Below, piece by piece: positions 5,284 to 63,940 of a stretch of DNA of 64,000 nucleotides. Every line of letters begins with the position of its first letter. Positions within the stretch are counted from its first letter, which is position 1. The DNA lies in the NCBI RefSeq assembly GCF_044324875.1, contig NZ_CP172185.1; one strand, written 5' to 3'. The notes beneath the pieces are model-generated. The model was not told the origin of the DNA. It saw only the letters and a program-made list of their open reading frames with translations, and ran no database searches. The DNA comes from Escherichia coli (GTDB taxonomy: Bacteria > Pseudomonadota > Gammaproteobacteria > Enterobacterales > Enterobacteriaceae). The translations under genes and the position numbers were made by a program.

Positions 5284-5973
5284 CTACTGGATCAGAAAAT
5301 GACGGGCCAGTAGCGCACTGGTGAAATTCTTCTTCAAATAAAATCCGCGCGGCAGCGTCAGAATCCGTTCGCCCCGGGCACCAATGGCTTCGGTCAGCGC
5401 TTTCGCATTCGCTGCTTTCGGTCGTATCTGTAAATATTCCCCGTGACGAGCGGTAATCCGCTCAACCTGACCGAGAACAATCATATCCATTAATTCTTCC
5501 CAGTCTTCGCGTAGCTGTCGGTCTTCCTCTTCATTCGGGCTCCACAGTAACGGTGATCCTACGCGACGCTGCGCCAGCGGGATGCTGCGCTCGCCTTCAA
5601 CCGGTATCCACAGTACGCGTTTGAGCTTGTGGCGTACGTGGCTGGTTTCCCAGGTCACCCCGCTATTACCCGTTAACGGGGCAACACAAACGAATGTTGT
5701 TTCCAGCGGACGACCAAGACTATCCACAGGGATAGTTTTAAGTTCCACGCCCAGGGCAGCAAAATCTTGCTCAGGTTTACTTCCTGCGCTGGCACCTAGC
5801 CAGATCTCCAGTAACACGCCAATCCAGCCCTTATCGCGTTTTAAATTCTCTGGTGTAACCAGCCCGGCAAGTGCCGCCAGTTCTCCCAATGTATAACCAG
5901 AAAGTTGCTGTGCTTGCGCTAACAACTGTTCTTCAGTTTCGGGAGGAGAGAGCAGTGGGCGAGGTTGGGACAT
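5284..5973 (-). CDS. mutH: DNA mismatch repair endonuclease MutH
   Basis: 229-aa ORF recognised as MutH; conserved neighbourhood. Confidence 0.92.
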
Positions 5974-25001: not shown

Positions 25002-25009
25002 ACGTAATT

Positions 25010-25050
25010 GCCGGATGCGACGCACGGGTGTTACGCATGTCGCATCCGGC
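25010..25050. repeat. REP-like palindrome between convergent recD and argA
   Basis: gccggatgcgacgc ... gtcgcatccggc inverted repeat read directly. Confidence 0.45.
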
Positions 25051-29336: not shown

Positions 29337-29411
29337 TGTGATATTCTGTATGCCGTTTTTACGTATACGACAGGGTGAGGGATAACCTCGCCCTTTTTAT
29401 TCTGAGGTGCT

Positions 29412-30218
29412 ATGTCTGTGGTAATTAGTGATGCATGGCGTCAGCGTTTTGGTGGCACAGCGCGTCTGTATGGTGAAAAAGCGTTGCAACTGTTTGCTGA
29501 CGCGCATATTTGTGTGGTCGGTATTGGCGGTGTCGGTTCCTGGGCGGCGGAAGCGCTGGCGCGCACAGGGATTGGCGCAATCACGCTTATCGATATGGAT
29601 GATGTGTGCGTCACCAATACCAATCGGCAAATTCATGCCCTGCGCGATAACGTTGGGCTGGCAAAAGCGGAAGTTATGGCGGAGCGTATTCGCCAGATTA
29701 ACCCGGAGTGCCGTGTAACGGTGGTGGATGATTTCGTGACGCCGGATAACGTAGCGCAGTATATGAGCGTGGGTTATTCGTACGTGATTGATGCCATTGA
29801 TAGTGTACGGCCCAAAGCGGCGCTGATTGCTTATTGTCGGCGCAATAAAATCCCACTGGTCACAACCGGTGGCGCGGGTGGGCAGATTGACCCGACGCAG
29901 ATTCAGGTTACCGATCTGGCGAAAACGATTCAGGACCCGCTGGCGGCGAAGTTGCGTGAGCGCCTGAAAAGCGATTTTGGCATAGTGAAAAACAGTAAAG
30001 GTAAGCTCGGCGTGGATTGCGTGTTCTCTACCGAAGCATTGGTGTACCCGCAGTCAGACGGTACGGTGTGTGCTATGAAAGCCACGGCGGAAGGGCCGAA
30101 GCGGATGGATTGTGCATCTGGATTTGGCGCGGCGACGATGGTGACCGCCACCTTTGGTTTTGTTGCGGTTTCTCATGCGCTGAAGAAGATGATGGCGAAA
30201 GCGGCCCGTCAGGGGTAA
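29412..30218 (+). CDS. tcdA: tRNA threonylcarbamoyladenosine dehydratase (ThiF/MoeB-like E1 fold)
   Basis: 268-aa ORF with nucleotide-binding motif VVGIGGVGSWAAEALARTG. Confidence 0.9.
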   Translation: MSVVISDAWRQRFGGTARLYGEKALQLFADAHICVVGIGGVGSWAAEALARTGIGAITLIDMDDVCVTNTNRQIHALRDNVGLAKAEVMAERIRQINPECRVTVVDDFVTPDNVAQYMSVGYSYVIDAIDSVRPKAALIAYCRRNKIPLVTTGGAGGQIDPTQIQVTDLAKTIQDPLAAKLRERLKSDFGIVKNSKGKLGVDCVFSTEALVYPQSDGTVCAMKATAEGPKRMDCASGFGAATMVTATFGFVAVSHALKKMMAKAARQG

Positions 30219-30225
30219 ACAATCA

Positions 30226-30257
30226 GGTCGGATGCGACGCGAACGTCTTATCCGACC
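30226..30257. repeat. REP-like palindrome between convergent tcdA and csdE
   Basis: ggtcggatgcgacgc gaacg tcttatccgacc. Confidence 0.45.
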
Positions 30258-30268
30258 TGGTTCTGTGC

Positions 30269-30712
30269 TTAAACCTGCTTCGCCACAGCGATAATCGCCT
30301 CGCTTAACGCATTCAACCCTTGGCTGCGTGAGGCGCTAAGCTGCGCACGCAATCCCAGCTCATCAAACAATGCCAGCGGCGACTGTGCCTGCAATTCGGC
30401 GGCGGTTTTCCCCTCAACGGCAGTCAACAACACCGCCAGCAGGCCGCGCACAATGCGCCCTTCGCTGTCGCCAAAGAAGTGCATTTTACCGTTTTCAGCC
30501 ACGGTATATCCCAGCCAGACGCGGTTTTCGCATCCGGCAATCTCTTTAGCCTGCGCTTTTAACTCGTCTGGCAAAGCCGGAAGCTGTTTCCCCAGCATGA
30601 TCAACTGGCGATATTTATCTTCCCATTGCGACAACGGTGCGAAGGTATTGCGTAACGTTTCTGCGGTTACGGTTGTGCCGAACGGATGTCCGGCGAATTG
30701 CGGGTTTGTCAT
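30269..30712 (-). CDS. csdE: cysteine desulfurase sulfur-acceptor protein (SufE-like)
   Basis: 147-aa ORF immediately downstream of csdA on the minus strand. Confidence 0.9.
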
Positions 30713-37786: not shown

Positions 37787-37894
37787 AATCGCTCCTGCAA
37801 TATAGCCGGATAACATTGCTTATCCGGCTAACCACTCTTGCTTGTTCAGGCCCGGTAGCCGGAGCGACCGGGCATCACATCAGGGAGTAATGTA

Positions 37895-42237: not shown

Positions 42238-43389
42238 ATGATGGCTAACAGAATGATTCTGAACGAAACGGCATGGTTTGGTCGGGGTGCTGTTGGGGCT
42301 TTAACCGATGAGGTGAAACGCCGTGGTTATCAGAAGGCGCTGATCGTCACCGATAAAACGCTGGTGCAATGCGGCGTGGTGGCGAAAGTGACCGATAAGA
42401 TGGATGCTGCAGGGCTGGCATGGGCGATTTACGACGGCGTAGTGCCCAACCCAACAATTACTGTCGTCAAAGAAGGGCTCGGTGTATTCCAGAATAGCGG
42501 TGCGGATTACCTGATCGCTATTGGTGGTGGTTCTCCACAGGATACTTGTAAAGCGATTGGCATTATCAGCAACAACCCGGAGTTTGCCGATGTGCGTAGC
42601 CTGGAAGGACTTTCCCCGACCAATAAACCCAGTGTACCGATTCTGGCAATCCCCACCACAGCAGGCACTGCGGCAGAAGTGACCATTAACTACGTGATCA
42701 CTGACGAAGAAAAACGGCGCAAGTTTGTTTGCGTTGATCCGCATGATATCCCGCAGGTGGCGTTTATTGACGCTGACATGATGGATGGTATGCCTCCAGC
42801 GCTGAAAGCTGCGACGGGTGTCGATGCGCTCACTCATGCTATTGAGGGGTATATTACCCGTGGCGCGTGGGCGCTAACCGATGCACTGCACATTAAAGCG
42901 ATTGAAATCATTGCTGGGGCGCTGCGAGGATCGGTTGCTGGTGATAAGGATGCCGGAGAAGAAATGGCGCTCGGGCAGTATGTTGCGGGTATGGGCTTCT
43001 CGAATGTTGGGTTAGGGTTGGTGCATGGTATGGCGCATCCACTGGGCGCGTTTTATAACACTCCACACGGTGTTGCGAACGCCATCCTGTTACCGCATGT
43101 CATGCGCTATAACGCTGACTTTACCGGTGAGAAGTACCGCGATATCGCGCGCGTTATGGGCGTGAAAGTGGAAGGTATGAGCCTGGAAGAGGCGCGTAAT
43201 GCCGCTGTTGAAGCGGTGTTTGCTCTCAACCGTGATGTCGGTATTCCGCCACATTTGCGTGACGTTGGTGTACGCAAGGAAGACATTCCGGCACTGGCGC
43301 AGGCGGCGCTTGATGACGTTTGTACCGGTGGCAACCCGCGCGAAGCAACGCTTGAGGATATTGTAGAGCTTTACCATACCGCCTGGTAA
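42238..43389 (+). CDS. fucO: lactaldehyde reductase (1,2-propanediol oxidoreductase), Fe-ADH family
   Basis: ORF with tandem ATGs at 42238 and 42241 (true start could be either); Fe-ADH motifs. Confidence 0.92.
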   Translation: MMANRMILNETAWFGRGAVGALTDEVKRRGYQKALIVTDKTLVQCGVVAKVTDKMDAAGLAWAIYDGVVPNPTITVVKEGLGVFQNSGADYLIAIGGGSPQDTCKAIGIISNNPEFADVRSLEGLSPTNKPSVPILAIPTTAGTAAEVTINYVITDEEKRRKFVCVDPHDIPQVAFIDADMMDGMPPALKAATGVDALTHAIEGYITRGAWALTDALHIKAIEIIAGALRGSVAGDKDAGEEMALGQYVAGMGFSNVGLGLVHGMAHPLGAFYNTPHGVANAILLPHVMRYNADFTGEKYRDIARVMGVKVEGMSLEEARNAAVEAVFALNRDVGIPPHLRDVGVRKEDIPALAQAALDDVCTGGNPREATLEDIVELYHTAW

Positions 43390-43407
43390 ATGCGCTGATG
43401 TGATAAT

Positions 43408-43440
43408 GCCGGATGCGACGCTAGCTGCGTCTTATCCGGC
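43408..43440. repeat. REP element between convergent fucO and xni
   Basis: gccggatgcgacgc tagct gcgtcttatccggc, followed by a partial second copy (ttgcatccggcacgcc). Confidence 0.5.
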
Positions 43441-43493
43441 GTATAAGTTCATTAAATTCAATGTGTTGATAATCGTTTGCATCCGGCACGCCG

Positions 43494-63902: not shown

Positions 63903-63940
63903 AGCTGGATATGGCGTCAGCCGTATCCAGCGATATCTTT
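63903..63940 (+). terminator. hairpin terminator after relA
   Basis: gctggata-tggcgtcagccg-tatccagc stem-loop followed by a T-rich tract. Confidence 0.5.

Follow-up and report, generated by a model that had tools for sequence, protein, structure and literature searches.

A solitary REP-family palindrome that has lost its GTAG tag at the convergent tcdA/csdE junction of Escherichia coli

What is the palindrome that sits between the convergent genes tcdA and csdE of Escherichia coli, how did it get there, and what may it do for the two transcripts that meet in it? REPs are among the longest-known repeats in bacteria, and in the stretch of 64,000 nucleotides of an E. coli genome that we analyzed (contig NZ_CP172185.1; hereafter the window) a 32-nt palindrome at this junction had been described, from the sequence alone, as REP-like and as filling most of a 50-bp spacer. 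Our answer is that the palindrome is most likely what is left of a decayed BIME: a single REP that is probably immobile, is fixed in the species, and now forms a 3′ hairpin that probably has the roles of other REPs. We give this account as a whole a probability of roughly 85%, and its parts are of different strength: the data show that it is a REP, how many copies there are, that it is fixed, that GTAG is lost, and how the junction varies among species, and from these we infer how it was inserted, its immobility, and what it does.

The location is the simplest part of the question. The identities of the two flanking genes, tcdA and csdE, are unambiguous, and the gene coordinates and stop positions agree with a convergent junction and a spacer of 50 nt, just as the original prediction had it (Table 1). 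By direct reading, the 32 nt quoted there are found exactly at 30226-30257, where the window reads GGTCGGATGCGACGCGAACGTCTTATCCGACC. The palindrome is real at that position, but its limits had been drawn slightly too narrow, as the Watson-Crick palindrome runs from 30224 to 30259. Counting extra A-U and U-G pairs brings the stem to within 3 nt of the tcdA stop.

Table 1. Coordinates of the junction features in the window, ordered by first position
Feature	Position	Strand	Remarks
tcdA	29412-30218	+	Gene upstream of the spacer
tcdA stop codon TAA	30216-30218	+	5 nt ahead of the Watson-Crick stem
Spacer, 50 nt	30219-30268	.	Between both stop codons
Extended lower stem, left arm CAGGTCGGAT	30224-30233	.	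From sequence and RNA/ssDNA folding
REP proper, y-type, 35 nt, CCAGGTCGGATAAGACGTTCGCGTCGCATCCGACC	30226-30260	-	From the R1 model; the sense strand of csdE carries the REP
2x2 mismatch (conserved)	30234-30235 vs 30248-30249		On the REP strand, AA (30248-30249) opposite GC (30234-30235); from the model alignment
Upper stem GACG/CGTC, 4 bp	30236-30239 with 30244-30247	.	From the model alignment
Loop CGAA	30240-30243	.	Between the upper-stem halves
Extended lower stem, right arm ATCCGACCTG	30250-30259	.	Pairs with left arm CAGGTCGGAT
GTAG tetranucleotide position	30257-30260	-	Reads CCAG; CCGG in K-12
GGTTCTGTGC, putative BIME linker remnant	30259-30268	+	Resembles Citrobacter GGTTCGTGCG: 9 matching bases, one indel
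csdE	30269-30712	-	Convergent with tcdA; csdA comes after csdE
csdE stop codon TAA	30269-30271	-	9 nt ahead of the stem on the csdE strand

The palindrome is also statistically secure, far past what chance would produce. As RNA, it folds with -27.8 kcal/mol on the plus strand (z-score -6.2) and with -24.8 kcal/mol on the minus strand (z-score -5.3), and none of 200 shuffled sequences folds as stably. As single-stranded DNA, the corresponding values are -14.6 and -14.9 kcal/mol, with z-scores of -4.7 and -5.3. In the 64-kb window there are two instances of the core pattern GGATGCGRCG..CGYCTTATCC, for a chance expectation of 0.00.

Is it a REP? A search with a REP consensus had been proposed as the check, and the outcome depends on which consensus is used. 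A simple y-REP consensus reports no match when up to 3 mismatches are allowed, as there are 7 differences between it and this copy, and two compensatory pairs account for 4 of these. On the other hand, a covariance model derived from K-12 does match. For this model (R1), REP-like sequences were gathered with a loose pattern from about 200 kb of K-12, and 11 independent GTAG-tagged REPs of the y type were aligned and combined with the published REP structure. R1 ranks the palindrome as the best match in the whole window, with a score of 35.1 bits and an E-value of 3.3e-7 (30260-30226, minus strand), which supports the REP-like reading. The alignment is full length (model positions 1-35 of 35), all 11 modelled pairs are standard base pairs, and the AA and GC bulge bases are present. 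The match is specific to one strand: the plus strand of the same palindrome scores 7.2 bits. The tcdA mRNA carries the complement of the REP strand (iREP). With respect to the calibration of the model, the canonical y copies used for training score 60-65 bits, bona fide z2-type REPs score 32-40 bits, and the K-12 orthologue of our palindrome scores 28.6 bits, so that the copy in the window falls inside the range of z2 REPs under a y model, and below the canonical y copies.

The details of the sequence point in the same direction. In comparison with the y REP that has been crystallised, GTAGGACGGATAAGGCGTTTACGCCGCATCCG (PMC3479197), 25 of 32 positions are identical. Wherever the stems depart from the y consensus, the changes compensate each other, with a C-G pair replaced by T-A in the lower stem and a G-C pair replaced by A-T in the upper stem, and the same stem variants are present in other K-12 REPs. 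The copy keeps T11, C27, and G32, which are the bases contacted by TnpA-REP, and it keeps the AA/GC bulge that has been described as a defining feature of the E. coli REP (PMC8266576, PMC3479197). It is extragenic, between the stop codons of two convergent genes, as REPs typically are found at the 3′ ends of transcription units. Moreover, the 50-nt spacer is multicopy and dispersed; across 5425 genomes we count at least 11-45 places per genome, with a median of at least 32. A search of Rfam reports a sub-threshold match to naRNA4 (RF02564) at 30204-30257 on the minus strand, with 30.6 bits for a gathering score of 59.5. The R1 score, the 25/32 identity, the compensatory stems, the multicopy spacer, and this sub-threshold naRNA4 match together support the REP reading, and we conclude that the palindrome is a solitary y-type E. 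coli REP, the REP strand being the sense strand of csdE.

Solitary, in this context, means that neither the pattern nor the R1 model detects a second REP in the spacer, whereas a BIME consists of at least two alternating REPs and a linker. Annotation is of no help here, since the NC_000913.3 record that we examined has no curated REP features anywhere, and a missing annotation is therefore uninformative for this copy. The GenBank K-12 record annotates a REP at about 5565-5669, and that feature is not present in the record examined.

What the copy does lack is the conserved 5′ GTAG of the y-type REP, and for that reason it is not a fully canonical member of the family. The C, A, and G of the CCAG found in its place pair with the CTG at 30224-30226, and the lower stem grows from 7 to 10 bp. 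Other REP-like copies in K-12 are also without GTAG, with GAAG or ATTG as examples, and in Citrobacter the corresponding tetranucleotide is still GTAG. The E. coli TnpA-REP tolerates no mutation of GTAG (PMC8266576, PMC3479197). Because CCAG stands where the REP transposase (RayT/TnpA-REP) requires GTAG, the copy is predicted to be immobile: it would have lost TnpA-REP binding and cleavage, and it probably no longer moves.

How widespread is the copy, and does its variation say anything about its structure? The 701-bp stretch around the palindrome is 100% identical to that of strain 118UI, and 5425 of the 5426 complete genomes have a match to it. With a query of 151 nt that includes the spacer, at least 80% of the length is likewise covered in 5425/5426, and we therefore take the REP copy to be fixed in the species. 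Among the variants, those of K-12 and W2-5 are changed in the bulge and at the position of GTAG; that of WL297 has three changes, one at a loop base, one at a bulge base, and one that breaks a pair in the 3′ arm; that of locus L030 breaks a pair as well; and that of AHM8C160RI has a longer, z2-like loop. Among the sampled Escherichia variants, we see no compensatory changes at this locus. The spacer differs between the window and K-12 at 2 of 50 positions, which is similar to the divergence of the flanking genes (96.3% identity). With divergence like that of the flanks, variants that break pairs, and no compensation, nothing points to selection acting specially on the structure.

Other REP-like elements are found elsewhere. 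Between mltA and tcdA (29337-29411), the window is without a 163-bp BIME that is present in K-12 and in 118UI. This BIME consists of a y REP and a z1 REP, both with the GTAG tag (L001 4844-5081; L002 1275-1512), and it is present in 2755 of the 5425 E. coli genomes, the others having the short form. The carriers have a direct repeat of about 20 bp on either side of it, and this repeat is the terminator hairpin of mltA. Because the same BIME is also found in E. albertii and in two other Escherichia species, the short form is probably the result of a deletion between the repeats. A second REP-like element at 43407-43444 on the minus strand, which starts 17 nt past the stop of the open reading frame at 42238-43389, has a z2-like loop of 7 nt, scores 32.7 bits under the y model, and reads ATAC at the GTAG position. 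Weak R1 matches at 63904-63931, 37804-37832, and 25009-25050 (12-13 bits, E-values 0.2-0.5) are GC-rich palindromes with GGATA..TATCC-like arms, and they may be terminators or very decayed REPs.

To ask where the REP came from, we have to look at other species. With one degenerate DNA pattern for a motif of TcdA, we obtained 120 loci among the species representatives, and the comparison of junctions uses the 92 Enterobacterales species loci in which both genes were found convergent. The Escherichia and Citrobacter junctions were compared by eye; MAFFT misaligned the repeated palindrome arms. In 33 of the 92 junctions the two reading frames overlap, and in another 21 the gap is 0-7 nt. The commonest overlap is 10 nt long, at a palindrome like TCAGGCCTGA in which each gene has its stop codon read from the opposite strand, and both proteins end in RQA. 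Overlaps of 10-16 nt at such a near-perfect palindrome are found in many Enterobacterales. Where the gaps are longer, they are filled by genus-specific types of REP in either orientation (for example in Klebsiella, Superficieibacter, Pseudescherichia, Citrobacter, and Escherichia). Relative to the species with overlapping genes, the E. coli insert is about 60 nt long and lies exactly between the CAGG and the CCTG of the palindrome. It comprises the spacer, both TAA stop codons, and the adjacent bases, and thus the REP.

The junctions of Citrobacter are the most instructive for the origin of this insert. In C. youngae, C. werkmanii, and others, a REP with an intact GTAG follows right after the tcdA stop, in the same orientation as in E. 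coli, and its stem, GTCGGAT..ATCCGAC, is identical to the E. coli stem. After this first REP comes GGTTCGTGCG, and then another REP, which overlaps the stop codon of csdE. By its resemblance to the Citrobacter sequence, the E. coli GGTTCTGTGC is probably the remnant of a BIME linker. At the E. albertii junction (L016 2398-2413), the fragment GCGCCGCATCCGG is kept between the REP and the csdE stop, which it directly precedes; it resembles what the 3′ arm of a second REP, since lost, would have left, in agreement with the decay of a BIME.

The comparison suggests an ancestral state in which tcdA and csdE, as convergent frames, had overlapping ends in a small palindrome, and a later insertion of a REP pair (a BIME) into the center of that palindrome in the Escherichia/Citrobacter lineage. 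The insert would have separated the genes by 50 nt and supplied the two TAA stops that are used at present, and in E. coli the pair would then have decayed to one REP without GTAG. The upper stem and loop are y-like in E. coli, z2-like in E. albertii and in AHM8C160RI, and z1-like in Citrobacter, and because the type differs among lineages there is still room for independent insertions or for conversion. Salmonella enterica offers two other arrangements. In subsp. arizonae (L121), tcdA and csdE are separated by 1223 nt, and in subsp. diarizonae (L073), csdE is absent from the approximately 740 nt downstream of tcdA. In both, the intergenic stretch starts with an apparent degenerate REP remnant (..GACGCGTKTTATCCGGCCCTGC).

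We turn to the transcripts. A promoter and terminator scan of the spacer (30219-30268) reports neither a terminator nor a promoter. An intrinsic terminator is expected to have a GC-rich hairpin and a U-rich tract of about 7-8 nt; here we find the hairpin, and we do not find an uninterrupted U run. The tails are partly U-rich and interrupted, with 5/8 U on the csdE strand (AUUGUUUA) and 4/8 U on the tcdA strand (GUUCUGUG). In K-12, a region of termination by Rho has been mapped to 2945321 (+), on the strand antisense to tcdA, with a score of 4.7 and a p-value of 1e-10 (Adams et al. 2021, PMC7815308 supplement 2). This region is about 310 nt past the REP on the csdE strand, and therefore polymerase coming from csdAE transcribes the REP without ending there, until Rho stops it.

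Term-seq, which had also been proposed as a check, gives a less simple picture. Among the entries examined in the PMC7815308 supplements, the only mapped csdE 3′ end is at K-12 2945008 (+), and it is listed three times in a file with three condition tabs. This position corresponds to L001 4009 and to window position 30246 on the minus strand; it is the last A of GGAUAAG-A and thus falls within the REP, in its 5′ arm. The coordinate convention of the table was checked against the K-12 sequence and with the rows for tRNAs and sgrS. For other REPs, the table gives 3′ ends that are 5-7 nt past the hairpin (PMC7815308 supplements). Read-through of the REP and termination by Rho agree with a model in which REPs and similar stem-loops protect Rho-terminated transcripts from 3′ exonucleases (PMC6061677), but a csdE 3′ end inside the 5′ arm is a poor fit to simple protection by a hairpin; one possibility is that it results from the processing of a sense/antisense duplex. 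For tcdA, the K-12 3′-end supplement (PMC7815308) lists no 3′ end.

From this analysis, the likely role of the element is that of a 3′ RNA hairpin for both mRNAs, and not that of an efficient intrinsic terminator. Transcription from either side would produce the stable hairpin shortly after the stop codon of the gene just transcribed. Like other REPs, the hairpin would slow 3′-to-5′ exonucleases and make RNA polymerase pause, with the final termination of csdAE transcription left to Rho further downstream. A hairpin between convergent genes can, moreover, be a place where polymerase pauses and collisions assist termination (bioRxiv 10.1101/2022.10.23.513370). Because it lies within 15 nt of both stops, it might also reduce slightly the efficiency of translation termination for tcdA and csdE.

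Several other readings have to be weighed against this one. The main effect of the element could be on translation, if ribosomes stall when they unwind the hairpin and the output of TcdA and CsdE is cut through tmRNA rescue. The terminating ribosomes would have to unwind it, because it starts 5 nt and 9 nt past the stops, and these distances are under the 15 nt within which REPs are reported to impede terminating ribosomes and affect translation (summarised in PMC12306157). The stem is in addition three pairs longer than that of a standard REP. However, many species have overlapping stops and no hairpin, and we hold a mainly translational effect to be a tentative reading, with a fair way to go before even odds. 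We think it unlikely that the palindrome is mainly a bidirectional intrinsic (Rho-independent) terminator for both convergent operons, with its REP ancestry incidental. Such a terminator would make sense of a hairpin that is rich in GC and folds with -25 to -28 kcal/mol on either strand, of the position between convergent genes, and of the partly U-rich tails, and convergent-gene hairpins in E. coli can act as bidirectional terminators with the help of collisions, even if they are weak alone (bioRxiv 10.1101/2022.10.23.513370). But the scan reports no terminator here, the U run is interrupted in both tails, the K-12 Rho site downstream implies that polymerase reads through, and the mapped csdE 3′ end is away from the 3′ foot of the hairpin.

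Gyrase and IHF activities have been described for clustered REP elements. An action at the level of the DNA, through binding or cleavage by gyrase, IHF, or DNA polymerase I as in BIMEs, draws on the report of REP clusters as gyrase targets (PMC3733652), but our copy is a single REP and not a BIME, and a 50-nt spacer is too small for an IHF-binding linker. With a lone REP and no second one, we rejected a gyrase/IHF site as the primary reading, and consider it very improbable. The idea of a chance palindrome, or of a regulatory hairpin specific to this locus and outside the REP family, could appeal to the missing GTAG and to the simple consensus, which fails at up to 3 mismatches. It has a negligible probability in view of the strand-specific R1 E-value of 3e-7, the pattern expectation of 0.00, the median of at least 32 similar places per genome, and the GTAG-bearing counterpart in Citrobacter; the pattern expectation, the copy number, and the R1 score contradict chance in particular. 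An sRNA gene like naRNA4 was rejected as the primary reading as well, on its score.

There is one more speculative possibility. TcdA and CsdE are functionally linked by the CsdA-CsdE sulfur relay and the synthesis of ct6A. It is conceivable, and in our view very improbable, that the transcripts of tcdA and csdE form a duplex over the REP and undergo joint processing (for instance by RNase III), so that the two partners would be linked in their stability or translation. The basis for this proposal is a shared complementary hairpin at most 15 nt from both stops, and the internal 3′ end of csdE. If true, it would be a new use for a domesticated, immobilised REP. Neither tcdA nor csdE appears in the supplements of RepRanger, and our literature search found no paper in which csdE, tcdA, and "convergent" occur together.

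What do we learn from this locus? The palindrome is an E. coli REP that has decayed in an ordinary way, of a kind already known, and its value is modest. It provides a clean worked example, in which the empty site can be reconstructed from relatives as overlapping stops in a 10-bp palindrome, and, on the insertion reading, one in which the insert created both present stops and altered the C-termini of both proteins. Within 0.8 kb, a GTAG-less copy that is fixed (5425/5426) contrasts with a GTAG-bearing BIME found in about half of the genomes, and this contrast between fixed and variable copies is useful for studies of REP turnover. It is also a warning for annotation, as consensus searches miss REP copies that have no GTAG.

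Finally, how does the element compare with known systems? The y-type REP of E. coli (palindromic unit Y) is reportedly the GTAG-3 family of Di Nocera et al. 2013. The copy at the tcdA/csdE junction has in common with it the length and the layout (7-bp lower stem, AA/GC mismatch, 4-bp upper stem, and 4-nt loop), the bases contacted by TnpA-REP, the extragenic location at gene 3′ ends, and the multicopy nature; it differs in having CCAG for GTAG, a lower stem of 10 bp, no partner, and 35 bits instead of 60-65. The nearest BIMEs for comparison are the Citrobacter junction BIME and, grouped with it, the K-12 mltA-tcdA BIME. With the Citrobacter element, the E. coli one shares the insertion site, the orientation, and the stem of the first REP, and the linker is similar, but E. 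coli has no second REP, and its upper stem and loop are of another type. The naRNA4 RNA (RF02564) is REP-derived and comes from the REP325 element. The palindrome is similar to it in sequence and structure over the stretch matched by Rfam, but it is not a member, because the match covers the single-REP part only and scores 30.6 bits where 59.5 are needed. The stem-loops of Rho-terminated mRNAs (Dar and Sorek 2018) are likewise stable hairpins with no U tract and with Rho acting downstream, as on the csdE strand here, with the difference that the K-12 csdE 3′ end, in the entries examined, is inside the 5′ arm of the hairpin and not just past it. As for bidirectional terminators such as that of ynaJ-uspE, in which one hairpin element is also common to two convergent units, the tcdA/csdE spacer differs from them in its poor U tracts, and we found no evidence of termination in it; what the two have in common is a single hairpin at the 3′ ends of two genes facing each other.
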